Shown here: one piece after another, positions 13,719-51,648 of the stretch
Layout: each line of letters opens with the position of its first letter
Position numbering within the stretch: position 1 is the stretch's first letter
Assembly: GCA_016699245.1 (NCBI GenBank)
Contig: CP064968.1
Coordinates: 576,317 to 640,316, forward strand
Reading direction: 5' to 3'
Source of the DNA: Candidatus Kaiserbacteria bacterium
Lineage (GTDB): Bacteria; Patescibacteriota; Minisyncoccia; Phycocordibacterales; UBA918
Length of the DNA: 64,000 nucleotides
Notes under the pieces: generated by a model
Told to the model about the DNA's origin: nothing
What the model saw: only the letters and a program-made list of their open reading frames with translations
Database searches by the model: none
Made by a program: the position numbers and the translations under genes

Positions 13719-13841
13719 TTCATCCTCCGGTCAACAGATTTAGCACAGCAGGGTCAACCCACTGTGGATACCACACCAAGTGGAACCGCGCGTACATTAT
13801 CATTAATCTATATACTGAGCAAATACTACTAGAAACGAGTC

Positions 13842-13911: not shown

Positions 13912-13972
13912 CAAATCAAGGCCGGGCCTTGTACGAATGTACAAAGTCCGGCCTTGAACGAAGTTGTATTTA

Positions 13973-18396: not shown

Positions 18397-18495
18397 ACGT
18401 AAAAATTAGGATTGTAGTACTTGTAGTACACGTCAGTGTCGAATTTATTTCATCTCTCCCTATGCGCCCGCTCACTTTCGTGCAAAAATACAATA

Positions 18496-30216: not shown

Positions 30217-30304
30217 GTATTGATTCTACATAATTTTTCCTCAGGAAACTACTATTACGTGCTGGCCGTCTGGGACGATATGAGAACTTATGTAACCACC
30301 CATT

Positions 30305-31228: not shown

Positions 31229-31467
31229 ACCTTAGTATACATTTTTATTGACTGTCTGGGTGGGTTAGCTCCGAAGGTCTGACCCTTATCGCTGTCAAAG
31301 CCATTTGCTAGCCATCTGGGACGATATTTGAACGTATTTAGCACTCTCAACGTAAGTATGAACTTGGGTCTGAAAAGTTCGACTATCTGGAGAATTTAAA
31401 ATCCTATATAAAATAGAATAAGATAAGTGGAAATGTGGTCAGTGAACCGACCCTATTTCTTGTAGAC

Positions 31468-32193: not shown

Positions 32194-32462
32194 AAAACAA
32201 TATCATTTTAGTTGTGTCAAGGCTGCGGGCCATCTGGGACGATGTTCGAACTTTTGTATTTAATGAATCTACTGTATAGTCACACTTGAGTGCTTGGATT
32301 ACCAATCTCTATGTCCGGTGTCGACAACAGGTTGAGAGCACAAGTAAACCTGCTGCCCACAGCCACGACAAACGACGGCCGTAACTATAACGGTCATCTG
32401 GTGTCCAAGCACTCACCCGCCACCTTTAATGGTGGCTTTTTCTTTCATAAAACGAGCTGGCC

Positions 32463-33038
32463 TTATGGGAGGATGTTAGAACCATCCTTCTCTAGAAAAT
32501 CTTTAATCTGCAGATTAGTCATTGGCGCTGATATTTTTCCAGAAAGATACTTTATCGTAACCACATGATGCTCCTCATCCCATGAATTGATACAATCCAA
32601 AGCAAGGATCACCTCGTAATCTCTCTGATATGCATCTATTACTGCCATTCTGACGCATGCATGCGTATTGATCCCTGATATGATGAGTGTATCTATTCCA
32701 AGCGCCTGAAGCATCTCATCAAGGTTAGTTTTATAGAACGGACTATACCTCCTTTTAATAATTTCTAAATCGTACGTCTGATGGTCAAGACCATCCAAAA
32801 GCTTGCTCCCTTCAGTTCCAGCAACAACAAATCTCTTACCTAATTTGCGATCGCCTATGAAGGCATCACTTCCATCAGGTTTCATTTCCTGCCTGACCCA
32901 AATGATCGGTACGCCATGCTCCCGTATTATTCCAGACAGAATATTTATCTTTGGAACTAAATCACTTTGAATTGCATTAAGTTCTACTGACTCAAAAAAA
33001 TCCTTTTGAAGATCAATGATGAGTAAAGCTGGTTTCAT
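32463..33038 (-). CDS. Isochorismatase-family cysteine hydrolase
   Basis: ALLIIDLQKDF (the catalytic Asp region), and a GINTHACV region containing the catalytic Cys. Confidence 0.7.
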   Translation of the reverse strand: MKPALLIIDLQKDFFESVELNAIQSDLVPKINILSGIIREHGVPIIWVRQEMKPDGSDAFIGDRKLGKRFVVAGTEGSKLLDGLDHQTYDLEIIKRRYSPFYKTNLDEMLQALGIDTLIISGINTHACVRMAVIDAYQRDYEVILALDCINSWDEEHHVVTIKYLSGKISAPMTNLQIKDFLEKDGSNILP

Positions 33039-33179
33039 ATTGCGTTAAGTGTATCAAAGTTCAAAAGTAAAACTCTTGATCTAATTCAACCTCAAATAAG
33101 GCTGGATGACGTGCTGGCCATCTGGGACGATGTTCGAACTTTTTTACAAACTAATCATTTCGTATACTATAATTAAGAA

Positions 33180-33977: not shown

Positions 33978-34196
33978 AAAATCTATAGTTGTATTGCTGG
34001 CCGTCTGGGACGATGTTAGAACTTTTTATACAACAAAAAAGTAAATATTTGCAAAATGCGTTACAATTAAAACTATATGGGCAGAAAAAAGAATGTAACT
34101 TGCACATCGGTATTCTAGGTATGCGGATTTCTCTTTTTTTTATATGCGAAATTTTGGTCCACCTCACTATCAATCCAGTCATGGGCAGAAGTCTCA

Positions 34197-34472: not shown

Positions 34473-34527
34473 TATTATGTTAGAAGACTAAAAAGCGATT
34501 GCTGGCCGTCTGGGACGATGTGAGAAC

Positions 34528-35004: not shown

Positions 35005-35070
35005 ATCAAAAGTATACCAGACCTTCGACTTGAACCAATTTTTTATTGAAAGGTATGGCTAAAATAAAGA

Positions 35071-35089
35071 GCTGCCGATCAGGGACTCG
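35071..35089 (+). repeat. 19-nt exact copy of the tRNA-Gln 3' end (attR-like direct repeat)
   Basis: gctgccgatcagggactcg is identical to 44643-44661. An inverted partial copy lies at 35196-35207, and a GAACAGTCCCCCGGACTGTT-type palindromic module at 35161-35183. Confidence 0.7.
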
Positions 35090-35538
35090 GTCACGAATCA
35101 CTAAGTATATTTGTTCGTCTACGACTCCAAATCTACTAAGTGTTCTCGACCCCGGCGGGTAAAACAGTCCCCCGGACTGTTTTCTTCCGCCTTTCGAGTC
35201 CCTAGGCAACAAACACAAAAATAACCGACTTTTGTCGGTTATTTTTGTGTTAGCTGGCAGCCTTGGACGATTTACGAACGCCAAAGTGGGTAGATTTGGT
35301 GGAATACCCCTCTCTCACACTCCAAGATATCCTTGAATTTACTCACTAATTCAGACAGAGAGGTTGAAGGGCCTAGAGTGATGAATGCTGATTACTATAC
35401 AAATTCGTAACTTTGCGGGGGTTTTTTCATTTACTTTCGAACTTTTGTTTTTGAGTGGGGGTACCCCCCGAATTGACCCCACACGTCTTGCACAAAGTAC
35501 CCAACTATAGATGGAGAAAAAAATCTGGTAAATTTTGG

Positions 35539-35544
35539 TATAAT
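35539..35544 (+). promoter_or_regulatory. Extended -10 element TGgTATAAT, 7 nt upstream of the ATG
   Basis: tggtataat directly precedes the start codon at 35551. Confidence 0.4.
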
Positions 35545-35550
35545 TTCTAT

Positions 35551-36534
35551 ATGGAAAAACCAAAAATATCAAATGTCGAACATAATCAAAATTTAAGTAA
35601 CATTCATCAATTGGATGAGGCTGTGAGGCAATTATATAGTAAGCCTGAGAACGACGAAGAGCTTGTGGAGCGAGTTAGGATTCTGAAAGAGATCCCTGAA
35701 AATTTAAATACACCTAAGGTGCTTGTTAAACTCGGTGACCCTACAAAGGCAGACAAGTTTATATATATGCACGATGATGAGGGGAAGGAGTATCTTATCG
35801 CACTACCCATAAACAAGATGGATTATCATAGGCAGATAGCGAATTTTGCGAGGAAGCTCTATGGAAAAGATTTTAAAGTCGATGGTGGTGGGTATCTAAG
35901 TGTGCGTGATGGCAATCTTGTTGTGCATGGTAGTTCTGGATCATACGGAAATTTTCCCCCTCGCGTTGTGTCAATTTTAAAGGAATCATTTCCAGACATT
36001 AATGTAGTTGATGAATCTCCATCTATTGTTGAACAAGATAAGATAAACAAGGAGCACAAAGCAGTTCTTGAGTCTATTGAAGATCCAGTTCAATCTGAAT
36101 TGTATTCTGTAGTAACGGGAGATCTTGGTACGAAAATGGGGTACGACTCCACGACACTTCCGCGTCCAGTTGATAATGCTGACGAGATGTCACATATGAT
36201 ATACAGAAGTGAAAATGGTGGTTCCTTTGGAGTCGACACGCTTTTTGTGGCTCGAAGAAAGGAAGACCACACGTTAGCAGTTAATGAAGTAGCTGTTACA
36301 CGATGGGCTATTCATGATGTGAGTGCACGAGCAGAGGGAGATACGATTATATTTGAGTTCACCACTAACGGCGAAAAGCAGGTACTATCTTTACCTATGA
36401 GTGAAGTCGACAAGAGAGAAGCTTATACGGACTTAAATGAACCAGAGAAAATCATTCTCAAAATGTATAAAGACAACCAAGCTATCTACAATACTGGGAC
36501 AAAACCAAAAATAATGCACGGCTCAGCACACTAA
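35551..36534 (+). CDS. Hypothetical protein (328 aa), divergent from the vWA/AAA+ operon
   Basis: No recognised motif. Start placed at MEKPKISN. Confidence 0.55.
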   Translation: MEKPKISNVEHNQNLSNIHQLDEAVRQLYSKPENDEELVERVRILKEIPENLNTPKVLVKLGDPTKADKFIYMHDDEGKEYLIALPINKMDYHRQIANFARKLYGKDFKVDGGGYLSVRDGNLVVHGSSGSYGNFPPRVVSILKESFPDINVVDESPSIVEQDKINKEHKAVLESIEDPVQSELYSVVTGDLGTKMGYDSTTLPRPVDNADEMSHMIYRSENGGSFGVDTLFVARRKEDHTLAVNEVAVTRWAIHDVSARAEGDTIIFEFTTNGEKQVLSLPMSEVDKREAYTDLNEPEKIILKMYKDNQAIYNTGTKPKIMHGSAH

Positions 36535-36546
36535 TTAATTAGTGTG

Positions 36547-38796
36547 CTATATCTTTACTCCTCCAAGGTACTTCTTAAGAGCTTCGGAGAGCACTGGGAG
36601 TAGTTTTTGCATATCCACGCCAACAACCATTCCGCGTTTCTCATTCTCATCACTATTCCATGCATAGTTAAATGCTCTTTCTTCAGATCTACCGACTTGA
36701 CCGATCTGAAATGCGCTCGCATGAACACCAACTTCCACCATTTTTTTAACTGCTTCTTGAGTTGCTCCAGCATCGCTTGATCCACCGTCTGTAATCTCGA
36801 AGAGTATATCTAGAATCTTCCCTTGTTGTATTCTTTGTTTACTCACTTCATCTTGAGTTTCGAGTATATGATTTAAAGCGACATGATCATAGGTGTTTCC
36901 ATTTTCAGCACCAGACTGCTTCAATGTATTAAGAATCTCAATCGTCGGGTCTTCTTCTCCACTTTCTGAATCAAGCTTCTTGATGATCGATAAAGTATTA
37001 CTGAATCCGAGTACCTGTGTTTCGACTTTGAGCTTTGAACCTGTACTACCTCGAGTAAGATTGAGCATCTCGTTAAATTGTTGAAGCGATCTGAGAATGA
37101 GAACTAGGGTCTTGGCAAGCACATTTTGCTTCGTTTCATCATCCATTGAACCTGATTTGTCCACCACAAGACGAACCCTAATGACCTCGGGCTTTTCAAC
37201 TGTAGATTCCTTCGTTATCACCTTATCGTATATTCTTGGCGAGGACTGACCTGCATAGATTGCCCCCATATTGTCTATGACGGAGTCGATATTTAAGTCA
37301 AAACCAGATGAGTGTGCACTATCTCTTGTGTGTGTAATTTCAATCGAACTTCCCGTAATGATATTTTGCCACAACTCAGTAAGATCATTCAGATACGGAA
37401 GAATACTCTCCTCAATCCTTCGGAGAGAACGCAATTCTTGATATATGTTTCTACCTTGAATTTCGTGCTGGTTTGCCCAATCTTTGTCTAAGTTTTCCTG
37501 AAAGGCACGTTCACTCTTCGGTTGTTCTTTTACTTTTCCATCCTTCTGAGCGTCTTTTGCCTTTTCTTCCTCTTTACGTTCAGTAAATTTCTTTATCTCG
37601 TCCTCATTGAGTTGATCAGGGCTTTGTGATTCAAACTTTTCATGAATATTTGACCACTCTTTAAATTTTTGCTCTTGTCGCTCTTTTGACGAAGTTCCAG
37701 TTGAATTAGTATTTTGTTGCTCGTTACTAGCAGTACCATCTGATTTTTTGTCCTCATTTCCGCTACCACTTTGTGACTTATCCGTCCCTTGATCCTCAGG
37801 ATTCTTATTTTCTGACTGACCTTTATCTTCAGTACTTTCTTGATTTTTCTGTTCAGGACTTTCATTACCCTGATTTTGTTCTTGCCCATTATCTTGGTTA
37901 GGATTGGATCCGTCATTCTTCTTATCCTCAGGATTTGAATCCTTATTCTCGTTAACATCCTTTTGTATCAAAGCTTCGTATATTGGTTGGATATACCTCT
38001 TTAAGTACTCATGTCGTGCTGACGCTTTTGCATCAGTTCGACCTGGAACCATAAAAGTATGGATGAGTGACTCCACGTCATATTCTTTATTGCCGACAGT
38101 AATTTGGGTATCTAGTGCCTCTCTCACCTCAGCATCTACAACAATTTCCTCGCTAGGGAGCATGGCTTTCCGAAGTAGATAATATGCAAACTGAAGATGT
38201 CGGGGGATTTGTGAAATTGAACCATCGTCTCCTTGTACATTAGTAAAATCTGAATCTTTAAATAATTTTTCTCGGTACAAATCTTCCACATGCTTTCCAC
38301 CTTGTCTTTTGCTTTCGTAATAACTTGCCCGTCTTGATACCACTTTATTTACATAGACATCATCCAAACAGTTGAATAACGTGTGGTACGTCTTATAGGC
38401 AAGTTGCGGATCCATCTCTGTTTCCTTTGAAAGTGTATCCGCCTTTCCTTTCATGTATTCAAAACTCGCAAGCAATCCTTCTTTGTCAGTAGCAAAATCT
38501 CTAAAATGTGAAAGTTCATGAAATACTGCCCAGAGTATTTGCTCTTTATTGTACCCTCGTTCAAAAAACCATTTGCTGTCGAGTTGTACGACCCCATTCT
38601 CGTAATCAATAAGAAATTGGTCCTCCATTTTGAATCTGAGCGAGACATCCTCGGCAAAGGAGTTGAGGAGTCTTCTGTGGCTATTCACAAAATCCTCACC
38701 CTGCTTTTTATAGGCTTCAATTTCCATCTCTACAGATGGTCGTTTTATTTGATCTATCGAATTGAATTTAAACTTTGGAGGCATATTAATAACCAC
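36547..38796 (-). CDS. von Willebrand factor A domain protein with an N-terminal HExxH zincin-like region and an acidic low-complexity linker
   Basis: FHELSHF near residue 90. A ~110-aa N/Q/E/K-rich linker. C-terminal vWA with MIDAS motif VVDKSGSMDD. It overlaps the upstream AAA+ gene by 11 nt, consistent with one operon. Confidence 0.7.
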   Translation of the reverse strand: MVINMPPKFKFNSIDQIKRPSVEMEIEAYKKQGEDFVNSHRRLLNSFAEDVSLRFKMEDQFLIDYENGVVQLDSKWFFERGYNKEQILWAVFHELSHFRDFATDKEGLLASFEYMKGKADTLSKETEMDPQLAYKTYHTLFNCLDDVYVNKVVSRRASYYESKRQGGKHVEDLYREKLFKDSDFTNVQGDDGSISQIPRHLQFAYYLLRKAMLPSEEIVVDAEVREALDTQITVGNKEYDVESLIHTFMVPGRTDAKASARHEYLKRYIQPIYEALIQKDVNENKDSNPEDKKNDGSNPNQDNGQEQNQGNESPEQKNQESTEDKGQSENKNPEDQGTDKSQSGSGNEDKKSDGTASNEQQNTNSTGTSSKERQEQKFKEWSNIHEKFESQSPDQLNEDEIKKFTERKEEEKAKDAQKDGKVKEQPKSERAFQENLDKDWANQHEIQGRNIYQELRSLRRIEESILPYLNDLTELWQNIITGSSIEITHTRDSAHSSGFDLNIDSVIDNMGAIYAGQSSPRIYDKVITKESTVEKPEVIRVRLVVDKSGSMDDETKQNVLAKTLVLILRSLQQFNEMLNLTRGSTGSKLKVETQVLGFSNTLSIIKKLDSESGEEDPTIEILNTLKQSGAENGNTYDHVALNHILETQDEVSKQRIQQGKILDILFEITDGGSSDAGATQEAVKKMVEVGVHASAFQIGQVGRSEERAFNYAWNSDENEKRGMVVGVDMQKLLPVLSEALKKYLGGVKI

Positions 38797-41557
38797 GTGC
38801 TATTTGTGGTGCGACAAATCGGTGTGTAGAGAAACTCCCGTTTACTTTTGAGACTTTCCATTCTTGATCTCCAATGCGTTTTACTGAAATAAGGACATTT
38901 TCATCACTCTTTAATTTTATACAAAAAAGGACGGGGTCATCTGCGTACATTGATCCAAAACTCTTCTCAAGATGCTCATTGTCTCTCCATCTTTCTTCAT
39001 AGTAAATAAACAGTTTAATCATCCATGGCTCAGTGAATATGAAGTCACTCAATAATTCTTTCAGTTTATCGATAGAAACAGTGTATGCAGGAAGTCTTTG
39101 ATCTTCTCTCCAATCAGCACCGTAATACTGATTAAATTCAAAACTACTCTTATTTTTAAAGATATGTGCGGCCTGTTCAAAAACTTGTTCGACTTCTGGA
39201 TCTAAGGACATTTTTAGCTTTTTAAATTCTTGAGATTCTTTTTCGTCCATATCAAATGCAGTAAATTGAGATCCGCGATTGATCATACTTCTACCAGTCC
39301 TTGGCTGAAGTGTTTTTGAGTCAGTACCTGGTTTCAAGTTTGGGAAATCAGGAGTGCCACAATATAATTCTCGTTCACGTCTTTCCTTGGTGAATTCGAT
39401 AAATTTACTAAACCCCTCGTCGAGCTTACTTTGAGCATCTTTGTCACCCAATGCAACCCGAACTCTTAACTCAAGTCGTTGTCCCAGCACTTCTTTAACG
39501 TTGTGTAATTCAGACCCAAAATCTTCTTCTAGTTGGTGCAAGAAGTCAGTATGATATTTAACAAATGCTTCATTGATCTTAAATTTCTCTGTGTATGTTG
39601 CAGCAATAGATGGAAAAAGATTCTTCTCACTTTCTATCACTCTTTCGACAGAAGCAACCGCTTGTTCTACTGAATCATACTTACCAGGATCATCTAAAGC
39701 TTTTACTACCTCAGAAAACGTGCTCTGCAACAATTGTTCTTCAGTTTCGTTTAAAAGATCCGTGGTCGTATTAATCTCTTCCTTCTCTCCATTTTTTAGA
39801 TGCTTTCTTAATTTAAAGACAAGCTCCTTAATTTTTGAGAGAGATTCATTACCATACTCCAAAACAGGAGCGAGTGAGGTCTTCAGATCGGATGAAACAC
39901 CTTCTGCTGAGACAAATTTTTGCAGTGTTCTTATGTTATTTTCCAGTTTCAGAATTGTGTATTCACTTTTCTTTATTCTTTCAAAATCGTACGGAAATTC
40001 ATTTCTTTCAGGAGCTTTTCCGTATACATTTTCAACAACTTCGCGTACGGTAGTAAACTGTAGATCCCTCCCTTTATTTTCAGGAGTGTGGATCGCTGAG
40101 TCAAATGTTCCAGCCTTTGCTACAGCCTCTTTCCACGAAGCATCAGTGAGAAATCCTTCTGCTTGAAGTTGTTGGACGAAAAACTTTACGTCCATTGCAT
40201 TTGTGAGTGGTGCGATTAACTCTTTATAAATATAGAAATCAAATTCGTTTTCAAAGTTATCTCGTTTCCACGACTCAATAACTTGCTTCACGTCACGCAT
40301 GCTTACGACCGACGATGTCGCAGTAAGTGGTACATTTAAGCCAGCCTGTCCCGAAAACAGCTTCCCATCGCGCTGACCACTGTATACTTCCTGGACCTTT
40401 CGTATAAACTTTGCCAATCGCCACAAATCATCGAAAGCATCTTCTGGAGCGTTCACATCCCCTTTATCGTTCATCAGCATCGCGATCATAAGCGTATACA
40501 ATTCATTTCCTCGCTCAGCCGTTTCTTGGTATGTGCCCTCTGTGGCTTGCGGTAAATAATCGTAATCTATCGGACGGATTCTGTTTACAAAATCCGCAGA
40601 CAATTCAAAAAGTCCTTTATACCTATCTATCGCCTTTGGATTGCGGTTTAAGTTTCCAGTCATAATGACTCCGAATCCTGGTCTTGCAATCATTTTTGTC
40701 CCCTTAGGGTCGCCGATAACAGGAACTTCTTCTCCACGTTTCGCATTAATAATTATGTCATTAAGTGATTTAAGTATCTCAGGTGGAATTGCGTTAACTT
40801 CTTCGATAATGAGAGGAATTCCTTGATCCATTGCCCTATATAGGGGACCCAAAACAAAATTTGCCTGTGGACCACGTTCATCTGACGTTAAATCAATTTT
40901 CCCAAATATCTTTGTTTCATCAATACCTTTTGCACCCGCTATTCTTTCTGGCTCAACACTTAACACCTCACTACAAAAATATTTAGCAACAGACGATTTA
41001 CCTGAACCCGTTTCACCATTCAGAAAAGGGATCTTATCAATTGCATAGTAATTATCTTGAAGCTCATCTAATTTCTTTTCTGCGTATGGTGTAAGCACAA
41101 AATCACCAGACTTTAACTCCTTTCGATACTCTCGTAATTCAAGGGCATTTCGAACAATATATGCTTCTGGGTTCGACCACATAAGCTCTGCGATTGAAGT
41201 TTCTACACCCTCGATCTCAGTATTAATCTTCTTCATTGCTTCAATCACCTGCGGTGGTCGATTGAGTGCGGAATTGATTGGAAAACGCTCCTCAAATTTT
41301 AACTTTGCATCTTTGAGAGCCACAACTCTCTTATCAAAGACATGAAATGCCCGTGCGGCCTCTTTAACATTTTTTAATCTAAGCTCAATAAGAGCATTCT
41401 CTTCAACAGAAAAATCAACATCATTTGTAATAGTTTCTGTCAAAAAGACACGTAAATCGTCAGGTAGATCCAGATCAGTTGCACTAGACAAATTCTCACG
41501 CGTAACGATTTCTTTTTTGTTTACTGATTCCTCAACAGGTTTCCAACTCTCTTTCAT
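38786..41557 (-). CDS. Large AAA+ ATPase (MoxR/AAA_5-like core), paralog 1
   Basis: Walker A LNGETGSGKSS, Walker B PLIIEEVNA, sensor-1 VIMTGNLN. 923 aa with long N- and C-terminal extensions. Confidence 0.7.
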   Translation of the reverse strand: MKESWKPVEESVNKKEIVTRENLSSATDLDLPDDLRVFLTETITNDVDFSVEENALIELRLKNVKEAARAFHVFDKRVVALKDAKLKFEERFPINSALNRPPQVIEAMKKINTEIEGVETSIAELMWSNPEAYIVRNALELREYRKELKSGDFVLTPYAEKKLDELQDNYYAIDKIPFLNGETGSGKSSVAKYFCSEVLSVEPERIAGAKGIDETKIFGKIDLTSDERGPQANFVLGPLYRAMDQGIPLIIEEVNAIPPEILKSLNDIIINAKRGEEVPVIGDPKGTKMIARPGFGVIMTGNLNRNPKAIDRYKGLFELSADFVNRIRPIDYDYLPQATEGTYQETAERGNELYTLMIAMLMNDKGDVNAPEDAFDDLWRLAKFIRKVQEVYSGQRDGKLFSGQAGLNVPLTATSSVVSMRDVKQVIESWKRDNFENEFDFYIYKELIAPLTNAMDVKFFVQQLQAEGFLTDASWKEAVAKAGTFDSAIHTPENKGRDLQFTTVREVVENVYGKAPERNEFPYDFERIKKSEYTILKLENNIRTLQKFVSAEGVSSDLKTSLAPVLEYGNESLSKIKELVFKLRKHLKNGEKEEINTTTDLLNETEEQLLQSTFSEVVKALDDPGKYDSVEQAVASVERVIESEKNLFPSIAATYTEKFKINEAFVKYHTDFLHQLEEDFGSELHNVKEVLGQRLELRVRVALGDKDAQSKLDEGFSKFIEFTKERRERELYCGTPDFPNLKPGTDSKTLQPRTGRSMINRGSQFTAFDMDEKESQEFKKLKMSLDPEVEQVFEQAAHIFKNKSSFEFNQYYGADWREDQRLPAYTVSIDKLKELLSDFIFTEPWMIKLFIYYEERWRDNEHLEKSFGSMYADDPVLFCIKLKSDENVLISVKRIGDQEWKVSKVNGSFSTHRFVAPQIARGY

Positions 41558-41608
41558 AGTACTGTTGATTATAGCTCATTAAATATGAATTTGTTTGTCA
41601 TTATTCCC

Positions 41609-44470
41609 CTAGTTAAAAGCTTTTCCTGTGATTGTTGGAGCAACGAACTGCTGGGCAGAAATCGATGGCTGGGTAACTTTAGTGATACTCCATTCATGAT
41701 CCCCAGTCCTGTCTAAAGCAAGTAAGACATCCTCACCATTTTTTTGGGCAACACAAAATACTGCTGGGAAGCTATACATGTATGCCTTTGCATAATCTTC
41801 AGAGTATTCGTACAATTTCTCGGAATGGTATATAAATCCTTCAACCATCCATGTGTCACTTTTGGAAAAACCACTGAGTAGCGTGTTAATTTTTTTCGTA
41901 TCAATCTCGAATGATTTCGGGTTTGGATTACCATTCTCGTCTCTCGTATCGAAGAAATCTTTTTGAAAGAAAAGCTGAAAAGTAACTGCACTTTCTTCTT
42001 TAAAAACTCTTCTCGCATTTGCAAAGACTTCTTCGACACCAGCATCCTTATGAATGATTGTTTTTTCCAACAACTCCTTGCGGTAATAAGCTAGTCCTTT
42101 TTCATCTCTGAAATGAGGGTTAAAAATAGCTGGAATTTGATCAAGCTCAATTATTTCACTTTTCTCATCAAGATTCGGATATACATCTGTTCTCAGTGTC
42201 CAGCGCAAGTCGTTATGTTTACGAAAGAAGAAATTAAAATCACTCATTAAGACAGATGCGGGATGTTTTACGTCCTCCAATGTGTACATATCAGCCCCAA
42301 GTCTTAATTCTAAATCAAGTATACGATTTATTATTTCATTCACACGATCAGCAAGAGTCAGGTCCGAATGAAAATTTTTGACTAGTTCATTTTTTTCCTC
42401 CAGCAATCCTTCCAATTCGACAATCAATTCTTTTTTACCAAGTATCTGATCTGGATTCCTTTTTGTTTCATACTCTTCGATTCTGTTGCTTGCTGCAATA
42501 TAGTCCTCAGTGTATACATCCTTTAATTCTGACCATAACGTTTCTTCTTTTTTGATTCTTTCCTTCCATAAATCCACGAACTCCCCAGCCTTTATTATCC
42601 GTCTATTTTGAAGAGAATCAACGGTTTTAAGTACTTTTTCGATTGATCCTGCACGAAGTTGAGTCAATGACTCACTTAGCTGTTCACCGAGTATACGAAG
42701 TTTCTTTCCGTCTCGTGTTTGGTGTGCATCCTCCATTTCTTTTACTAGAGTGGTAACGTCTGCTTCAAGTTCTGCAAGACCATCACGAATGCCACGAAAT
42801 TGATTATTTTCTGCACCCTCAAGAAATGCGTCCATTTTTTCTTTTTGTGACTGTACAGTGCAGAGTTCGCTCTTTGCATAGGTAATAACATTAGGATCAT
42901 ACTGTGGGTACTCCTTTCTCTCAGGAATTTTCCCGTAAACATTTTGTACAACGTCGCGAACAGTCGAAAACTGAATTTCTTGCCCCTTATTTTCAGGAGC
43001 ATGCATAGCAGAATCGAATGTCCCAGCTTTTGAAACGACATCCTTCCATGACTGATCAGTAAGGAAACCTTCAGACTGAAGTTGTTGAACAAAAAACTTT
43101 ACATCCATTGCATTAGTGAGCGGTGCAATAAGTTCCTTATATACGTAGTAATCAAACTCTCTTTCAAAATTATCTCGCTTCCATGACTCAATAACCTGCT
43201 TCACATCGCGCATACTCACGACTGAAGATGTGGCGGTCACAGGCATATTCAGTCCGCCTTGTCCTGAAAATAATTTCCCGTCTCGCTGACCGCTGTAGAC
43301 TTCTTGTACTTTTCGGACAAACTTTGCCAAACGCCACAAATCATCGAACGCCTCTTTAGGTGCATTTACATCACCCTTATCGTTCATGAGCATTGCGATC
43401 ATGAGTGTGTAAAGTTCATTACTTTTTCCCGCCTCTTCAATGTAGTTACCTTCAGTTGATTGGGGTAGATAATCGTAATCTATTGGACGAACGCGATTAA
43501 CAAAATCGGCAGAAAGTTCAAATAGCCCTTTGTATCGATCGATAGCCTTTGGATTGCGATTGAGGTTTCCGGTCATGATCACGCCGAATCCATCCTTAGC
43601 CTTTACTTTTGAACCCTTGGGGTCACCAATAACAGATACCTCCTCACCCTTTTTCGCATTGATAATTATGTCATTGAGTGATTTTAGGATCTCAGGCGGA
43701 ATTGCATTAACTTCTTCAATAATGAGGGGAACTCCTTTTTCCATTGCACGATAAAGGGGACCTGGCACAAAGCGTGCCTGTGGTCCGTTCTCGTCTGAAG
43801 TAAGATCAATTTTGCCAAATATTTTTGTTTCATCAATTCCTTTTGCTCCCGCAATTCGCTCTGGTTCTACCTCAAGTACTTCAGCGCAGAAATACTTGGC
43901 GATTGATGATTTCCCTGACCCCGTCTCTCCATTTAGAAAGGGGATCTTATCTATTGCGTAGTAGTTATCTTGGAGCTCGTCTATCTTTCTCTCAGCGTAT
44001 GGAGTCAAAACAAAATCCCCCGACTTTAATTGCTTTCTGTACTCACGCAACTCTAAGGCATTACGCACCACATATGCTTCTGGATTTGATTGCATTAATT
44101 CTGCAGTCGAGTTTTCTATTTCCGATATTTCCGTATCAATTTTTCTCATCGCCAAAATTACTTGCGATGGACGGTTTTGTGCAGAATTGATTGGAAATTT
44201 TTCCTCAAACCTAAGCTTTGCGTGTTTAAGTGAATCTATCTTTTTGTCAAAAGCACGAAACGCTCGAGCGGCCTTCCTTACATTTTGGATTCTTAGTTCA
44301 GCAAGTACGGTTTCCTCTGCTGTTAAACCAACCTCATCTGGTATGGTTTCTGTAATGTATGACTGGAGTTCTGGAGGGAGATCAAGATCCTCGGATCGAG
44401 CTAGATTTTCACGTGCAATAACTTCCTTTTCATTGACTGACTTTTCAATCGGTTTCCAGTTTTCTTTCAT
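41609..44470 (-). CDS. Large AAA+ ATPase (MoxR/AAA_5-like core), paralog 2
   Basis: Collinear with paralog 1, with the same Walker A/B and sensor-1 motifs. Start moved to MKENWKPIEK by alignment with paralog 1. Confidence 0.7.
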   Translation of the reverse strand: MKENWKPIEKSVNEKEVIARENLARSEDLDLPPELQSYITETIPDEVGLTAEETVLAELRIQNVRKAARAFRAFDKKIDSLKHAKLRFEEKFPINSAQNRPSQVILAMRKIDTEISEIENSTAELMQSNPEAYVVRNALELREYRKQLKSGDFVLTPYAERKIDELQDNYYAIDKIPFLNGETGSGKSSIAKYFCAEVLEVEPERIAGAKGIDETKIFGKIDLTSDENGPQARFVPGPLYRAMEKGVPLIIEEVNAIPPEILKSLNDIIINAKKGEEVSVIGDPKGSKVKAKDGFGVIMTGNLNRNPKAIDRYKGLFELSADFVNRVRPIDYDYLPQSTEGNYIEEAGKSNELYTLMIAMLMNDKGDVNAPKEAFDDLWRLAKFVRKVQEVYSGQRDGKLFSGQGGLNMPVTATSSVVSMRDVKQVIESWKRDNFEREFDYYVYKELIAPLTNAMDVKFFVQQLQSEGFLTDQSWKDVVSKAGTFDSAMHAPENKGQEIQFSTVRDVVQNVYGKIPERKEYPQYDPNVITYAKSELCTVQSQKEKMDAFLEGAENNQFRGIRDGLAELEADVTTLVKEMEDAHQTRDGKKLRILGEQLSESLTQLRAGSIEKVLKTVDSLQNRRIIKAGEFVDLWKERIKKEETLWSELKDVYTEDYIAASNRIEEYETKRNPDQILGKKELIVELEGLLEEKNELVKNFHSDLTLADRVNEIINRILDLELRLGADMYTLEDVKHPASVLMSDFNFFFRKHNDLRWTLRTDVYPNLDEKSEIIELDQIPAIFNPHFRDEKGLAYYRKELLEKTIIHKDAGVEEVFANARRVFKEESAVTFQLFFQKDFFDTRDENGNPNPKSFEIDTKKINTLLSGFSKSDTWMVEGFIYHSEKLYEYSEDYAKAYMYSFPAVFCVAQKNGEDVLLALDRTGDHEWSITKVTQPSISAQQFVAPTITGKAFN

Positions 44471-44523
44471 AATGTCCATTATTATACCCAAAAAATACTG
44501 GGTAGTTTGTTGGTCCCAAAAAC

Positions 44524-44549
44524 AAAATCCACCCAAATGGGTGGATTTT
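44524..44549 (-). terminator. Terminator hairpin downstream of tRNA-Gln
   Basis: aaaatccaccc aaat gggtggatttt. Confidence 0.55.
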
Positions 44550-44640
44550 TAGTTTGGATACTGCTCTCAGCAGGTATGCCATTTCAGAATAGTCCTCGGG
44601 TGGTTTCGACGCGTCTCGTGCGCGATAACCTACCTCGAGT

Positions 44641-44714
44641 TGGCTGCCGATCAGGGACTCGAACCCCAATGACTTCCTCCAGAGGGAAGCATCCTACCAT
44701 TAGATGAATCGGCA
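44641..44714 (-). tRNA. tRNA-Gln (anticodon CTG), CCA encoded
   Basis: Manual cloverleaf: U1-A72 acceptor pair with G73, as in bacterial tRNA-Gln. Anticodon loop CTCTGGA. T-loop TTCGAGT. Confidence 0.7.
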
Positions 44715-44719
44715 ATGTG

Positions 44720-45224
44720 ATATGTGCGTTTGTACAAGGTTCTCGTTTGGACTCGATTCCTACAGAATCTGTTCAGGTTGTCGATACTTTATTTCGCATG
44801 CACTCATAAATTATCTGGCAACCTTCTTGAAAAGTCTCCCAGACTTTTCAAGCCCCAATGACTTCCTCCAGAGGGAAGCATCCTACCATTAGATGAATCG
44901 GCAATGTTTGTTTTGTACTTTGTTTGTTCTCGTTTGGACTCGATCATTACATGATCAGTACACGTTGTCGATATTTTTACAAAATATCTGGCAACGTCCT
45001 GAAATGATACCCCATATCATTTCAGCCCCAATGACTTTCTCCCGGGGGAAGAATCCCACCATTAGATGAATCGGCAATATTTTGTACGTCGCCCAGATTA
45101 CTTTTTTTGGGATGCGTGTGTGCATCGTCTGTTTTTCTTCCGTGGGGAAGAAAAACAGACGGGCTCAGAAATTATAATTGCTTCGCTCTTTAATTTCTGG
45201 CCACCATTAGATGAATCGGCAATG
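44720..45224 (-). repeat. Two and a half tandem ~180-bp units, each ending in a copy of the 5' ~55 nt of tRNA-Gln
   Basis: Fragments at 44853-44906 (near exact), 45026-45078 (diverged) and 45201-45224 (short). The spacers share blocks ttctcgtttggactcgat...gttgtcgata...atctggcaac. Confidence 0.7.
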
Positions 45225-45299
45225 TGTATTGCTTTGGAACTCCCAAATCAATAGCGTCTGAATTCTAACAGATTTTTCAATTTTTGCTATACTTTTATC

Positions 45300-45917
45300 A
45301 TGCAAAAAATACGAGTATTTATTATCCATGGTGGGATGACTTTTAAAAGTAAAAAGGATTATATTACGTACCTTACGACCCGAGAAATTTCTATTGATCG
45401 TAAGCCAAACTGGACTGAAGAATATCTGAATACCTCTCTCGGAAAACAGTTTGAGATAGTCCGGCTCCGTATGCCAACCCCCGACAACGCCCATTATGAT
45501 GAATGGAAAATTCACTTTGAGCGCTATCTTCCCTTCTTCACGAAGCAAGTCATTCTTATTGGAGAATCTCTTGGTGGCATTTTCCTTGCACGATATCTTT
45601 CTGAGAACCGCCTTCCACAAAAAGCACTTGCGACATATCTCGTTTGTCCTCCTTTTGATAACTCTCTTTCTGATGAAGACTTGGTGAATGGCTTCAAACT
45701 CAAACCAGACCTTTCCCTTCTTCCTGAAAACACGAATCATCTTTCAATTCTCTTCTCCGCAGATGATGATGTCGTCCCCGTGCAACATGCAGAAAAATAT
45801 CGTGAAAAACTTCCCACCGCAATGATACGGATACTCAAAGGAAAAAATGGACATTTCAACGTGAGCAAATTACCCGAAATAGTAAAAATGATTCTCAAAG
45901 ATACGCGTCCACGATAA
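45300..45917 (+). CDS. Alpha/beta-fold serine hydrolase (YdeN/RBBP9-like)
   Basis: GESLGG nucleophile elbow (GxSxG). Confidence 0.6.
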   Translation: MQKIRVFIIHGGMTFKSKKDYITYLTTREISIDRKPNWTEEYLNTSLGKQFEIVRLRMPTPDNAHYDEWKIHFERYLPFFTKQVILIGESLGGIFLARYLSENRLPQKALATYLVCPPFDNSLSDEDLVNGFKLKPDLSLLPENTNHLSILFSADDDVVPVQHAEKYREKLPTAMIRILKGKNGHFNVSKLPEIVKMILKDTRPR

Positions 45918-45973
45918 CACTATAAGACACAAATTATCTTGTCTACATTCAGTAGATACCTGCTATACTGGAG

Positions 45974-46627
45974 TTGATGATATTACTCAGACTTCATCAT
46001 ATAAATCCTTTTTATATGATGGGTATTTTCCTTGTTGTAGCGCAACTCTTTATTTTTAGTGCTGTCCTTCACGATCCTTCAATAGGTATCTTTTTATTCT
46101 GGTCATGTAACAATTTCTGTATTTTCTTGATGTATGCTTGTTATAAGCAGGATATGCAGATGATCAAGGGTATTAGTTACCTCGGATTAGTGTCACAGAT
46201 ACTCTGGATATTAGATTTTGGCTCGCACATATTAGGATTTGATTTGTCTGGAATCACTGACTACATATACCTTGAAGGATTCACATATACCAATGAGGTT
46301 TCAGTAGGAGTTCATATAATTATTCCTATTGCGATACTTGTTTTTAGTTTTAGAGTAAAACCAATGTATACATCGCTTCTATATGCTCTTCCCTATATCG
46401 TTTTTCTCTACATCGTCACGCTCATATGGACACCACCTGTAGAAGATATTAACTGCGTCTTTTATGGATGTGGCAACGATCAATACCTCCCCTATAATAT
46501 ATTGTTATGGCCATTGTATGCAGTTATTTCAACCTTGCTGAGTTACGGTATTCACAGCCTTTTGTATTACGGGTGGAAAAAGACTGTTGTCAGTTTAAGG
46601 TACATAGCAACGCGCAAGCATGCATGA
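45974..46627 (+). CDS. Multi-pass membrane protein
   Basis: 217 aa with about 6 hydrophobic helices. Confidence 0.45.
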   Translation: MMILLRLHHINPFYMMGIFLVVAQLFIFSAVLHDPSIGIFLFWSCNNFCIFLMYACYKQDMQMIKGISYLGLVSQILWILDFGSHILGFDLSGITDYIYLEGFTYTNEVSVGVHIIIPIAILVFSFRVKPMYTSLLYALPYIVFLYIVTLIWTPPVEDINCVFYGCGNDQYLPYNILLWPLYAVISTLLSYGIHSLLYYGWKKTVVSLRYIATRKHA

Positions 46628-46707
46628 ATATATGACGACAACAGATACTATACACATAAAACACTGGCGTTAACGCCAGTGTTTTACTTTTTCAATAATC
46701 TCAATTG

Positions 46708-47238
46708 TTAACTCGCTCTTGATTGACGGGCTTTCTTTGCTGCGGCGGCGGCATCGGCGGCTTTTTTTGCGGCAAGTGCATCTGCGGCGGCTTGCTGTTT
46801 TGCGAGTGCTGCTTTTTGGGCTGCCAAGGCATCGGCTGCGGCTTTTTGTGCAGCGAGAGCGTCTGCGGCTTTCTTTGCAGCAGCGGTTTCGGCTTGCTTC
46901 TTCGCAAGGGACGTCGCGAAGTCTGCGGCATTTTTATCTGAGGCTGCTTTCTGAGCCGCCGCTGCTGCCTCTGCTTCTAATCGTTCCGCTTCCTTTTGTG
47001 CTTGGGCAATTTCCGCTTTTAGTTTTTCTTCAGCGCGCGCTTGCTCTTCATTTTTTAAAAGAAGCAATTCTGCTTGGAGTTTTGCTTTTGCCTCCTCTTC
47101 TTTTTGTTCTTTTTCAAAGTTGAGACGTTCATTCTCAATCTCTATTGCCACCTTTTCCGCATACGCCGAAGAACCTCCATAGAGCATGATGCCAATGAGT
47201 GCAAAAGTAGCCGCTACATTTCTAATATCTTTTTTCAT
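46708..47238 (-). CDS. Secreted Ala/Lys-rich coiled-coil repeat protein
   Basis: Signal peptide followed by heptad-like repeats AKKAADALAAQKAA, iterated. Confidence 0.55.
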   Translation of the reverse strand: MKKDIRNVAATFALIGIMLYGGSSAYAEKVAIEIENERLNFEKEQKEEEAKAKLQAELLLLKNEEQARAEEKLKAEIAQAQKEAERLEAEAAAAAQKAASDKNAADFATSLAKKQAETAAAKKAADALAAQKAAADALAAQKAALAKQQAAADALAAKKAADAAAAAKKARQSRAS

Positions 47239-47243
47239 ATAGG

Positions 47244-47414
47244 TTAATCAAGTTTCTGCCACATGTGTGTCTCACCTTTTGTCACCTCACATTCACCACA
47301 CTTAAATGTATCAGGTAATGTCTCCCACTTAGTGCCCGCGAGGAAACCACGTTCGGGGAAGCCCACCGCTTCATCGTAAATCCATCCACACTCTAAGCAT
47401 ACGTATTGAGACAT
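47244..47414 (-). CDS. Rubredoxin (56 aa)
   Basis: VCLECGWIY...KCGECEV contains two CxxCG knuckles with rubredoxin spacing. It is absent from the ORF track because it is shorter than 60 aa. Confidence 0.7.
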   Translation of the reverse strand: MSQYVCLECGWIYDEAVGFPERGFLAGTKWETLPDTFKCGECEVTKGETHMWQKLD

Positions 47415-47609
47415 AATTTGTTGGTTATCTTATTACCAAATAATACTACCTTTCTAGTATGAATATTTGATGAAGATGAGGGGACGTAGAGCCCATCCAA
47501 TGACCCCAGATACGAGGCATCGAGGAGTGAAGACATGAGGCGTACTTAATGTACGATGAATGTCTGAACGACGAAGATAACGAAGTAGGTGGGGTTAGTG
47601 GATGGGCTC

Positions 47610-48644
47610 TTATGCACAGGGTACGCGGAGTTCAATAGTCGTACCTTCACTTTTTATACTTGTCACACGAAGCGTCCCCCCATGTGCATCAGCAATTTCT
47701 TTTACAATCGCAAGACCGAGGCCAGAGCCTGTGGTGGCTTTTTGGGTTCGGGCGACATCAACTTTGAAAAATCGTTCAAAGATACGTGGTATGTCTTCCT
47801 CCGCAATACCGATACCCGTATCCGTAATACGAAGTACCGCTTCACGATGCACTTTTTCGAGTGAAAGTGTCACACTACCTCCCCTGGTATTGTAGTCCAC
47901 AGCATTTTTAAGGACATTGAGCACAAGGCGTGTCATGTCATCCTGGTTACCCACAAGGGTCACCGCTGTATCTACCCGATGAGATACGGTCACCTCTTTT
48001 TGTGCGGCATAGGCAACAAGCCTTTCACACTGAGCAATACACACGTCATTGAATAAAAATGGTGCTACTGTGCGCACTCTCCCTTCGGTATTTCGGACGA
48101 GAAAAAGAAGATCGTTTGAAAGTGTGATGAGTCGATTAATTTCATCTTGCGACTCCATAAGAAACTGTCGGTACTGAGGGGTGGTGCGTTCCCCCTGAAG
48201 GAGTACTTCCCCTCCCGCTTTAAGGACCGCAAGTGGTGTACGGAGTTCATGTGCTGCATCGGCCACGAATTGCTTTTGACGCTGGTATGACTCCGCAAGT
48301 GGTGCAAGCGTTTTACGTGCGAGCAGATATGAAACAATGAGTGTCATAAAAAGAAGAACGATATCTGACACGACGAGAATATCAAAGAGATTCTCAGTTA
48401 CTTCATGGAGGAGTGGCTCATTGCGCATCTCGAGCATTTCTTTATACTCATCACTTCCGTGTTCTATCTCTAACTCACGCTCAACTCCTTGTGAAAAAAG
48501 GATGTATACGGCTACACTAAATACCACGAGAATACAAAAGACGCCGAGCGTGTAGTACGCAGTCAAGCGAATGACTGCGCCTTTAAAGTTAGTGGCTGTT
48601 GAATTTGTAACCAACGCCGCGAATCGTTTCAATATAGTGTTCAT
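47610..48644 (-). CDS. Sensor histidine kinase
   Basis: HisKA H-box AAHELRTPL. HATPase N, G1 and G2 boxes (DTGIGI, GSGLGLAIV). Confidence 0.8.
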   Translation of the reverse strand: MNTILKRFAALVTNSTATNFKGAVIRLTAYYTLGVFCILVVFSVAVYILFSQGVERELEIEHGSDEYKEMLEMRNEPLLHEVTENLFDILVVSDIVLLFMTLIVSYLLARKTLAPLAESYQRQKQFVADAAHELRTPLAVLKAGGEVLLQGERTTPQYRQFLMESQDEINRLITLSNDLLFLVRNTEGRVRTVAPFLFNDVCIAQCERLVAYAAQKEVTVSHRVDTAVTLVGNQDDMTRLVLNVLKNAVDYNTRGGSVTLSLEKVHREAVLRITDTGIGIAEEDIPRIFERFFKVDVARTQKATTGSGLGLAIVKEIADAHGGTLRVTSIKSEGTTIELRVPCA

Positions 48645-49257
48645 GTGAATCTGTGAGTTTTTTTCTTAGTTGTCGTATGTATACGTCGGTGATATTGCTA
48701 AATGCACTATAGGCGAAGTCCCAACAATGTTCAAGGAGTTGCTCACGAGTCACCACGGCGTCAGCATTTCGCATGAGGTACTCAAGTATCGAGTATTCCT
48801 TTGGCGTGAGGGTGATTTCCTTCCCTTTCTTCCTCAAGGTGTGCTCAGTGGTATTGAGTTCTAAATCTTGCATGTGAAGTGTGTCAACAAATTTTTCCTG
48901 TGGGCGACGAAGGAGTGCGCGGGCGCGTGCAAGCAGTTCTTTCATTTCAAATGGCTTCACGAGATAATCATCTGCACCGCTATCGAGCCCATCAACTTTG
49001 TCATCTATTTCCCCACACGCGGTAAGCATGAGAATAGGCATCACGTACCCTGCGGCGCGAAGTGTACGGCATACATCTTTGCCGTTTTTCTGAGGGAGCA
49101 TGACATCGAGTACAATAAGGTCGTATACCCCCGACCCAGCCATGCGCTCGCCAGACTCTCCATCACTCACCGTATCCACCGCATAGCCATGTTCCTCAAA
49201 CATTTGCTTAATGTAGGCTGCAAGTTTTTCGGTATCTTCTACTACAAGTATACGCAT
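48589..49257 (-). CDS. OmpR-family response regulator
   Basis: Receiver domain (LVVED...DLIVLDVMLP) and a C-terminal winged helix. Confidence 0.8.
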   Translation of the reverse strand: MRILVVEDTEKLAAYIKQMFEEHGYAVDTVSDGESGERMAGSGVYDLIVLDVMLPQKNGKDVCRTLRAAGYVMPILMLTACGEIDDKVDGLDSGADDYLVKPFEMKELLARARALLRRPQEKFVDTLHMQDLELNTTEHTLRKKGKEITLTPKEYSILEYLMRNADAVVTREQLLEHCWDFAYSAFSNITDVYIRQLRKKLTDSHEHYIETIRGVGYKFNSH

Positions 49258-49318
49258 GGGGATAGTATAGCGTGTATTCATCTTCTCTTCATCTTATGCT
49301 TGATACACTATATCCATT

Positions 49319-50218
49319 ATGCAGGAATTCACGTACACAGGTAAAGCGATGGGGACTGATTTTTCGGTTTCTATTGTGACTGAAAATGAAAGTGTTGCCC
49401 GCACTCTCTTTGAGAGTGCGGGCAACACTATACATGCGTACGAAGCGCGCTTTTCTCGATTCCTCCCCGAAAGTGAACTTTCACAACTCAATGCAACACG
49501 CACAGCAATTGTGTCTCCCGAGTTTCTTGAGGCACTTCTCGAAGCAGAACGACTCTTCGAGCTCACCCATGGTGTCTTTAATCCTTTAGTCCAAATAGAT
49601 CGCTTCGGATATGTGACCTCGTTTGAAACACTTGAAAGTACGACGCCTGCACCGTCTCCAGAAGAACCATACGATATCGACTTCTCTACCACATCTATTG
49701 ATCCTGAGATACGAAGCGTCATACTTAATGAGGGACAAAAATTGGACTTTGGAGGTTTTCTCAAAGGGTTCCTTGCAGAAAAAATTGCCAAAGAACTTAT
49801 GAACTCAGAAAATATAGTCCAAGGAGTCATCGTGAACCTCGGTGGTGATATTCATACTCAAGGACTTGATGCCGAAGGTGCTCCCTTCCTCTTTAGTATC
49901 TATAATCCCATTACCCAAAAAGACGATTTTCATCTTCCCCTCAAAGACGCAAGTCTCGCAACGAGTGGTATCTACAAACGTACATGGATGCATGGAGATA
50001 TTCCGACACACCACATCCTTGACCCTTCAGGTACTCATAACCCGGATTCAGACATTGTCTCAGCAAGTGTCGTACACGAACATGGTGGCATGACCGAAGC
50101 ATGTGCAAAAGTTTTTCTCTCTCTTGGGATTCAGAAAGCTTCACAGGTACTACGGGAGCACTCCATGCGCTACATTATTATTACCAAAGGCGGTACGTTA
50201 CTCACCGACACCATATGA
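49319..50218 (+). CDS. FAD:protein FMN transferase (ApbE family)
   Basis: ApbE-like motifs (THGVFNP, LDFGGFLKG, ATSGIY). Confidence 0.65.
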   Translation: MQEFTYTGKAMGTDFSVSIVTENESVARTLFESAGNTIHAYEARFSRFLPESELSQLNATRTAIVSPEFLEALLEAERLFELTHGVFNPLVQIDRFGYVTSFETLESTTPAPSPEEPYDIDFSTTSIDPEIRSVILNEGQKLDFGGFLKGFLAEKIAKELMNSENIVQGVIVNLGGDIHTQGLDAEGAPFLFSIYNPITQKDDFHLPLKDASLATSGIYKRTWMHGDIPTHHILDPSGTHNPDSDIVSASVVHEHGGMTEACAKVFLSLGIQKASQVLREHSMRYIIITKGGTLLTDTI

Positions 50219-50847: not shown

Positions 50848-50850
50848 CAT

Positions 50851-51543: not shown

Positions 51544-51648
51544 AAATTAACAGGAAGGACCTGTTTAAACAGGTCCTTCCTGTTGATTTTGTAAAATACA
51601 AAACAGCCGATGCCCATAGGGCGCCGGCTGTTTTGATGTCACATGGCT

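Follow-up and report, generated by a model that had tools for sequence, protein, structure and literature searches.

A duplicated AAA+ ATPase with a vWA/HExxH partner beside tRNA-Gln in Candidatus Kaiserbacteria, and its kinship with retroelement-linked cassettes

What might two large paralogous AAA+ ATPases, encoded next to a protein that combines an HExxH motif with a von Willebrand factor A (vWA) domain, do for a Candidatus Kaiserbacteria bacterium, and how did their genes come to lie beside a tRNA-Gln gene? These questions are raised by a block at positions 35090-44640 of a 64-kb stretch of contig CP064968.1 (64,000 nucleotides, positions 576,317 to 640,316 of the forward strand; assembly GCA_016699245.1), which we refer to as the window. 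An earlier reading of the letters (the original prediction) had seen here an acquired, conflict-like module in a configuration that it did not recognize as described. Judged by sequence, the module is a member, lacking a diversity-generating retroelement (DGR) and carrying a duplicated tail, of a DGR-associated family of AAA_5 ATPases and zincin-like proteins with a metal ion-dependent adhesion site (MIDAS) in candidate phyla radiation (CPR) bacteria and DPANN archaea. There is, in our estimate, about an even chance that the block encodes a conflict-type module, accessory and cytoplasmic, that works as an ATP-driven sensor-switch-effector system and is built from a MoxR/midasin-type AAA+ motor and a MIDAS-vWA partner.

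A conserved motor, a variable tail and a MIDAS partner

Both ATPases match Pfam AAA_5 above its gathering cut-off of 22 (ATPase-1, 55.3 bits, E 9e-15; ATPase-2, 50.0 bits, E 3.9e-13), in agreement with the MoxR/AAA_5-like core that had been read in the two paralogs. In an alignment of 10 homologs, both paralogs included, Walker A (GETGSGKS) and Walker B (hhhhEE(V)N; LIIEEVN in ATPase-1) are invariant, and midasin chains are the only PDB sequence matches of the family profile (E 4.5e-15). ATPase-1 consists of an N-terminal helical domain, the AAA_5 core, a conserved post-AAA region that extends to about residue 545, and a tail in which a divergent helical bundle precedes an alpha/beta C-terminal domain. 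The architecture of ATPase-2 is the same (residues 1-525 conserved, 526-760 helical bundle, 761-923 C-terminal domain), and region by region the two paralogs are 68/89/83/17/30% identical. Their DNA is about 78% identical over the N-terminal half, from which we conclude that the duplication is old and that both copies are under purifying selection there. Among the close-clade loci, a duplicated ATPase was found in the window only.

The same division runs through the family. Across ten close ATPase homologs, identity is about 50-90% in the N-terminal 170 residues and about 73-98% at residues 171-525, with its peak in the AAA core; it is 16-48% in the helical bundle and 29-59% in the alpha/beta C-terminal domain. 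All ATPase pairs that we compared show this pattern of conserved motor and divergent tail. For example, the ATPase of locus L001 (P0002; locus numbers are ours) and P0003 are 90-100% identical per 50-residue interval up to residue 500, whereas their C-terminal ~400 residues are 26-72% identical per interval (70% at 501-550, then 26-30%). The vWA partners of the same two systems (L001 and the contig with P0003/P0018) are 67-96% identical per 50-residue interval, mostly 82-96%. In the clade of the window, the ATPase tail is the only fast-evolving part of the module.

The partner protein (745 aa) comprises an N-domain with the HExxH motif (residues 17-280), a linker (282-362), a helical region (366-476) and a MIDAS-type vWA domain (481-740). 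Its HExxH residues (H89, E90, H93) are invariant in 42 homologs, as is the complete MIDAS motif DxSxS...T...D (D542, S544, S546, T631, D666); D100, N138 and D142 are likewise invariant and are candidate downstream third ligands. The linker is disordered and rich in N, S, Q, E and D, so that the HExxH motif and the acidic linker of the original prediction both stand. In the AlphaFold2 (AF2) model (mean pLDDT 76.6) the confident N-domain contains a sheet of three strands, after which comes the HExxH helix, and the vWA domain is structurally nearest to NorD in the NorQD complex (the top Foldseek match) and to the MIDAS of Rea1/MDN1. A search of PDB sequences with a profile of the N-domain gave no meaningful match, no peptidase was among the structural matches listed for the protein, and the Pfam DUF2201_N matches were weak (E 0.0028 and 0.033, below thresholds).

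In two distant relatives of this protein (P0208 and P0209, 922-924 aa) the HExxH N-domain and the vWA domain are separated by an inserted transglutaminase-core domain. The insert is predicted to be a second effector, of peptidase or crosslinking type, in the same scaffold.

In the fourth protein of the block (327 aa), residues ~55-160 form a PHPT1/Janus-like domain whose His93 is invariant, and the C-terminal domain is of unassigned type. PHPT1 is the only PDB profile match of this family of 10 clusters (E 0.011), and the invariant His is aligned to the catalytic His53. Pfam Ocnus (PF05005) matches the window protein at E 0.0018 and 18.8 bits, below the cut-off of 23, and precomputed PF05005 matches exist on 4 homologs. 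The gene adjoins the module in the window, L001 and L002 and stands alone in L042 and L043; since it is also found without the module, we regard it as a facultative, separable neighbor.

All four products are deposited Candidatus Kaiserbacteria proteins (953, 923, 745 and 327 aa, from a 1,054,716-nt contig); a look-up of the window ATPase by exact protein sequence returned no record. The gene of the PHPT1-like protein had been called divergent, but it and the vWA gene converge, with 12 nt between their 3' ends and a shared hairpin (36525-36548). The ATPase and vWA genes are co-directional, as claimed, but their supposed overlap is limited to ATPase-2 and the vWA gene, the sole abutting or overlapping pair; 51 nt separate the two ATPase genes. 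A crude check found no hydrophobic run of at least 14 residues and no hydrophobic N-terminus in any of the four proteins, which therefore appear to be cytoplasmic.

Relatives inside and outside DGR cassettes

The close ATPase family comprises about 10 clusters among 5.8 billion proteins. For the vWA/zincin family, 44 word-indexed matches were found, including Taylorbacteria, Woesearchaeota and Micrarchaeaceae, and a hidden Markov model scan of 1.84 billion representatives returned 545 clusters, almost all of the same architecture at 650-850 aa. Twenty loci were found in 185,579 genomes (one per species): 15 labeled as Patescibacteria (CPR), 4 labeled only "bacterium" and 1 (L017) labeled "Bdellovibrionales." Wherever enough sequence is available among L001-L031, the ATPase gene adjoins the vWA gene.

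A sister clade of these proteins resides in DGR cassettes of CPR and DPANN genomes. Its vWA/zincin protein is homologous to that of the window over the full length (29-41% identity, E 1e-92 to 1e-133), whereas its ATPase (650-1090 aa) aligns only to window residues 1-525 (30-39% identity, E 1e-71 and 1e-60); the gene order is opposite, with the vWA gene first. Of 20 informative loci, 12 have a DGR reverse transcriptase gene directly upstream of the vWA gene, usually together with bAvd and a lectin-fold target. A-biased pairs of template repeat and variable repeat (TR/VR) were detected in 11 loci. Sixteen TR/VR pairs of 110-128 nt were found, in 14 of which all mismatches fall at template A (12/14 and 20/22 in the other two). 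In L009, L013 and L022 the VR occupies the 3' end of a gene for a CLec protein of 350-400 aa, placed between the vWA and ATPase genes (the CLec N-termini of the L009 type look non-hydrophobic by eye), and in L019 it is formed by the 3' ends of the ATPase open reading frames (ORFs) themselves (4416-6680 and 11489-14761). Neither the 64-kb window nor L001-L006 contains a reverse transcriptase, Avd or TR/VR. A CLec fold like that of DGR targets was also considered for the C-terminal domain of the window-type ATPases and was rejected (hhalign probability 0.15%).

The module thus has a precedent, contrary to the original prediction: the sister clade is an AAA ATPase/vWA pair inside CPR/DPANN DGR cassettes. 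DGR targets fused to AAA ATPases in CPR had already been noted, according to the account of Paul 2017 given in PMC10907252, and one class of CPR targets ("Midasin-domain" UVR4) matches the midasin AAA domain (PMC5758913). A coupling of sensors diversified by DGRs to MoxR ATPases is likewise on record (PMC10907252).

Within the close clade, contexts differ from genome to genome. The module of L001 has a NUDIX gene on one side and, on the other, a large serine recombinase gene, which is followed by terminase-like and methylase genes; that of L002 has housekeeping genes around it and shares its strand with the PHPT1-like gene; that of L003 comes directly after tRNA-Trp and before gapdh; and that of L004/L005 lies beside a large serine recombinase gene and restriction-modification (R-M) genes. 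A large serine recombinase gene also adjoins the module in L009 and L022, and most loci have no recombinase next to it. Neighbors vary across the loci examined, and no conserved client gene accompanies the module; NUDIX genes lie near it in L001 and L002, and no homolog of the NUDIX gene of the window was found in any locus.

These observations bear out an accessory module. It is sporadic, it occupies a variable low-GC region by tRNA-Gln in the window, and elsewhere it is found in unrelated contexts, several of them beside recombinases, R-M genes or a prophage-like block. The module does not serve an adjacent enzyme as a RavA-like or CbbQ-like chaperone. The site shared by the modules of L003 (9816-15108, close clade) and L007 (10001-15141, a DGR-less distant clade) is immediately upstream of gapdh-rpiB-rpe-transketolase.

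The tRNA-Gln slot and its structured units

The GC content of the block is 0.38-0.40, within a dip that is wider than the block (0.36-0.42 across ~31-47 kb, compared with 0.44-0.49 elsewhere). The original prediction had pointed out the intact tRNA-Gln and an exact 19-nt copy of its 3' end at the other side of the block, both of which are real, and had taken them for the attL/attR signature of an island without an integrase. We likewise found no integrase or recombinase at 35090-44640 or in the flanking window ORFs examined, but the attL/attR reading proved too simple. Ten metagenome contigs carry the tRNA-Gln 3' 30-mer, and the closest relatives among them (L037-L039) have an identical tRNA and flanks that are 93-95% identical. 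The blastn homology of L033, L035, L037, L038 and L039 to the window stops at 44520-44524; the variable cargo therefore begins past the tRNA terminator (~44522) and not at the tRNA 3' end. Beyond this point L037/L039 carry CsoR-like and HMA metal genes, and L035 carries DsbA-like and cysteine-desulfurase genes. Because close relatives hold other genes at the same tRNA-Gln site, the ATPase block is probably variable cargo. An empty site that joins the tRNA-Gln to the NUDIX gene was not found among the 10 metagenome loci. No tRNA-fragment repeats were found around the modules of L002 and L003.

On the 5' side of the tRNA, the gene for CTP synthase (pyrG) provides a reference point. Its homologs lie 0.4-1 kb from tRNA-Gln in L035, L036, L040 and L041, and the ~6.9 kb between the two in the window (44715-51648) are therefore extra, probably a second insertion. 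This segment holds a Ser-hydrolase gene, membrane protein genes and ORFs that resemble, on a look at their sequences, a histidine kinase/response regulator pair.

The 19-mer, GCTGCCGATCAGGGACTCG, occurs in exactly two copies (35071-35089 and 44643-44661), with no third at up to 3 mismatches and 0 expected from shuffles. It is a copy of the T-loop-to-acceptor segment of tRNA-Gln and forms the 3' end of a unit of ~145 nt (35069-35215; fold energy -70.8 kcal/mol, z -7.9), in which it pairs with unit-internal complements. One of these is an 11-nt match at 35193-35203, for which chance was considered and rejected, as it is the pairing partner of the 19-mer inside the unit. A similar unit in L032 (641-764, z -7.5) directly follows the tRNA-Gln terminator and ends in a second exact 19-mer, so that the order in the window (tRNA, terminator, ~9.3 kb of cargo, unit) recurs there without the cargo. 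Two tandem units follow tRNA-Met in the window (z -8.1), and further ones are present at L036:455-582 and L037:464-591. The units are gene-less and range from ~120 to 155 nt; in each, the 5' end is paired to a copy of the acceptor/T-stem strand of the tRNA 3' end, and the stems covary with the neighboring tRNA (Gln or Met). Rfam, run over the intergenic regions, returned only tRNA plus chance sub-threshold matches, with no family at gathering score over the units.

Since the 19-mer is embedded in a unit that is also found without cargo (L032) and after tRNA-Met, it cannot be read as a plain attR. The repeat is real and tied to recombination at the T-loop, and it belongs to a lineage-wide structured element rather than simply to the attR of an island. 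The units could be tRNA-mimic RNAs, folded recombination sites or elements resembling miniature inverted-repeat transposable elements (MITE-like). As they bound the cargo slot, they may reveal a route by which genes are inserted beside tRNA genes in these genomes.

Further tRNA-derived sequence lies nearby (Table 1). Upstream of tRNA-Gln, three tandem units contain copies of the tRNA 5' part, and after each copy come a hairpin and a spacer with homology to the tRNA-Met units; such units are present in L037 and L038 too. A motif of ~30 nt, TGCTGGCCGTCTGGGACGATGT.AGAACTT, which resembles a tRNA 3' end, is dispersed in one orientation between single genes of the low-GC 30-35 kb and points to small cassettes arrayed downstream of tRNA-Gln. 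In L033 the motif precedes a copy of the tRNA-Gln trailer.

Other parts of the window hold features apart from the module. The alpha-2-macroglobulin gene encodes MG2, A2M, bait region, TED and MG10 domains and adjoins a gene for a PBP1-type transglycosylase/transpeptidase; such pairing of A2M and PBP genes is usual and occurs here in a CPR genome. The protein with RhuM and Fic/DOC domains is toxin-like or of mobile-element type. Close to tRNA-Asp, with no full rRNA gene in the vicinity, an isolated segment matches positions 46-180 of bacterial 23S rRNA at 52.9 bits, which barely exceeds the gathering score.

Table 1. Positions of the module, the tRNA-Gln slot and other features of the window (positions in other loci carry the locus number)
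Feature	Position	Strand	Basis or remark
322-aa protein with RhuM and Fic/DOC domains	13973-14941	-	
PBP1-type transglycosylase/transpeptidase	18436-20598		
Alpha-2-macroglobulin, 2208 aa	20582-27208	-	
TGCTGGCCGTCTGGGACGATGT motif copies	30261-30281, 31307-31327, 32225-32245, 32456-32476, 33113-33133, 33996-34016, 34501-34521	+	
TGCTGGCCGTCTGGGACGATGT motif copies in other loci	L033:7091-7111, L041:4282-4302		
Structured tRNA-derived repeat unit	35069-35215	-	19-mer repeat, fold energy, alignment to units in L032 and after tRNA-Met
PHPT1-like 327-aa protein (P0058)	35551-36534	+	ORF 35455-36534; real start 35551
Zincin-like/vWA protein (P0014), 745 aa	36547-38784	-	ORF 36547-38796 opens at GTG 38796; deposited start 38784
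ATPase-2 (P0001), 923 aa	38786-41557	-	ORF call
ATPase-1 (P0005), 953 aa	41609-44470	-	ORF 41609-44536, reaching to TTG at 44536; 44470 the probable real start
tRNA-Gln trailer with intrinsic terminator	44522-44640	-	Terminator scan; stem 44549-44524, then T run
tRNA-Gln (anticodon CTG), intact	44641-44714	-	ARAGORN; Rfam tRNA, 50.3 bits
Three tandem units upstream of tRNA-Gln	44715-45225		
Copy of tRNA-Gln positions 1-51/53, exact	44853-44903		
Copy of tRNA-Gln positions 1-51/53, diverged	45026-45076		
Copy of the tRNA-Gln 5' part, 19 nt	45203-45221		
CTP synthase gene (pyrG)	51649-53325		
23S rRNA fragment, 140 nt	59186-59325	-	
Two tandem units after tRNA-Met	60927-61047 and 60772-60892, within 60736-61158	-	

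Proposed function and comparison with known systems

If the block is a sensor-switch-effector module, the two ATPase tails would be its ligand-recognition parts, fixed as two variants that share one vWA partner. We assign the sensor role to the tails because relatives hypermutate the same position by DGR and because the tail is the only fast-evolving part here. Binding of a ligand, such as a phage or mobile-element protein, would change the ATPase ring; the ring would act via the docked MIDAS domain and the linker, as in NorQD and Rea1 (a MoxR/VWA docking model is given in PMC9976466), and the zincin domain would thereby be released or activated. The activated domain might then cleave host or invader proteins in a response of the abortive-infection or restriction type, which the PHPT1-like neighbor, not being obligatory, may modulate. 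The proposal follows the logic put forward for vWA-MoxR conflict systems (PMC7159879) and for DGR-diversified, MoxR-coupled sensors (PMC10907252). A bolder version, which we regard as possible but rather doubtful, makes the window system a germline-encoded, DGR-independent intracellular immune receptor peculiar to the ultra-small episymbionts of CPR/DPANN, with a midasin-like AAA+ ring whose interchangeable tails, two alleles of which stand side by side, would recognize proteins of invaders, and with a zincin that is unleashed via MIDAS. If this were true, the window and the DGR-coupled sister clade would form a lineage-wide "adaptive versus hard-wired" receptor pair on one motor.

Several observations weigh against a conflict module. 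The defense role is one that we infer. PADLOC gave no significant match for the module proteins, PHROGs and NCBIfam scans gave nothing beyond generic AAA matches, and no relatives were found with both family profiles in IMG/VR (2.9 million contigs) or by tblastn against 50,697 phage genomes (INPHARED). The position shared by L003 and L007 reflects either a common hot spot or long-term residence, the latter being a hint of stable maintenance. The AF2 model of the ATPase is of low confidence (pLDDT 63.6), so that the fold of the tail is not assignable from it, and fast evolution of a coiled-coil region can equally mean weak constraint. Finally, CPR DGR targets have been proposed to mediate host interaction and not immunity, as summarized in PMC10907252.

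This last proposal leads to a different device, for episymbiosis or host interaction, in which the variable tails would bind changing host molecules and the ATPase/vWA/zincin machinery would process or deliver them. CPR and DPANN are episymbionts, the family appears confined to them, and contact with host cells is the role proposed for DGR targets of these lineages in the same summary. All components appear to be cytoplasmic, however, by the crude hydrophobicity check and by eye for the CLec N-termini, and secretion genes are not consistently linked, T2SSE/F genes lying a few kb away in L009 only. We consider this reading improbable, and to the same degree the reading of the module as an assembly or maturation chaperone of the NorQ-NorD, CbbQ-CbbO, CoxD-CoxE or RavA-ViaA type, which would remodel a specific enzyme or complex of the cell and whose two tails would address two clients. 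For a chaperone speak the precedent that all characterized MoxR/vWA pairs are chaperone-like (PMC9976466, PMC3893208), the Foldseek match to NorD and the central-metabolism genes beside the modules of L003 and L007. Such a role is hard to reconcile with neighbors that vary and include no conserved client gene, or with a family too rare and patchy for housekeeping; moreover, DGR hypermutation in the sister clade would be senseless for a fixed client, the tails diverge sharply between systems that are otherwise 90-100% identical, and known chaperone partners lack an invariant HExxH domain.

Slightly less probable still is selfish cargo of an integrative element, which would serve the carrier element and not the cell through addiction, anti-defense or element maintenance. 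The large serine recombinases of L001, L004/L005, L009 and L022, the terminase/methylase block of L001 and the variable tRNA-linked slot would all suit such cargo, but most loci have no adjacent recombinase, no element genes accompany the module in the window, and the searches of viral contigs and phage genomes described above detected no relative.

CPR bacteria rarely carry CRISPR or other recognized defenses, and their DGRs are abundant. The locus and its relatives link binding domains diversified by DGRs, a motor of the MoxR/midasin type and a MIDAS partner that resembles a protease, and the window provides a natural version without a DGR, whose variable part is duplicated and joined to the motor. 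The sensor-switch-effector proposal is thus a concrete model to test that involves few proteins, with the tail as sensor, the ring as switch and the zincin as effector.

Several known systems resemble the module in part. In midasin/Rea1 six AAA modules share a chain, whereas in the window each chain has one and the motor and MIDAS are on separate polypeptides; the window module also has an HExxH domain and no evident substrate with a ubiquitin-like (UBL) domain. NorQ-NorD, CbbQ-CbbO and RavA-ViaA likewise pair a MoxR-type ATPase with a vWA partner, the VWA domain of NorD being the top Foldseek match, but the window module lacks a client operon, has HExxH and hypervariable tails, is rare and occurs in mobile contexts. 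The DUF2201_N/DUF2201 putative metallopeptidase and VWA-like proteins, which are paired with MoxR ATPases, share the order of HExxH followed by vWA, an AAA_5 neighbor and weak Pfam matches; the window-type proteins have roughly double the length and contain a helical insert and a disordered linker, and their matches are below Pfam thresholds.

The vWA-MoxR ternary conflict systems (Kaur et al. 2020, PMC7159879) have in common with the window a MoxR-clade AAA+/vWA core, an effector of peptidase type, DGR links in relatives and the proposed threshold-switch logic. They differ in several respects: (i) VMAP, iSTAND, FtsH and beta-propeller domains are lacking from the window proteins (Pfam, NCBIfam, PADLOC), and the third gene is PHPT1-like; (ii) the order is reversed, the vWA domain of the window being C-terminal (481-740) and the effector-like HExxH domain N-terminal; (iii) the window ATPase is three times larger, with a variable tail of its own; and (iv) the hosts are ultra-small CPR bacteria, whereas theirs are multicellular bacteria. 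From the DGR-coupled ATPase/vWA pairs of CPR/DPANN the clade of the window is set apart by the lack of reverse transcriptase, Avd, TR and VR, by a tail that, on profile comparison, is not CLec but a ~400-aa extension of helical bundle plus C-terminal domain, by the duplicated ATPase of the window and by a PHPT1-like gene that is often adjacent. With these same pairs the window shares homologous proteins, adjacent genes, the same lineages and an occasional large serine recombinase.

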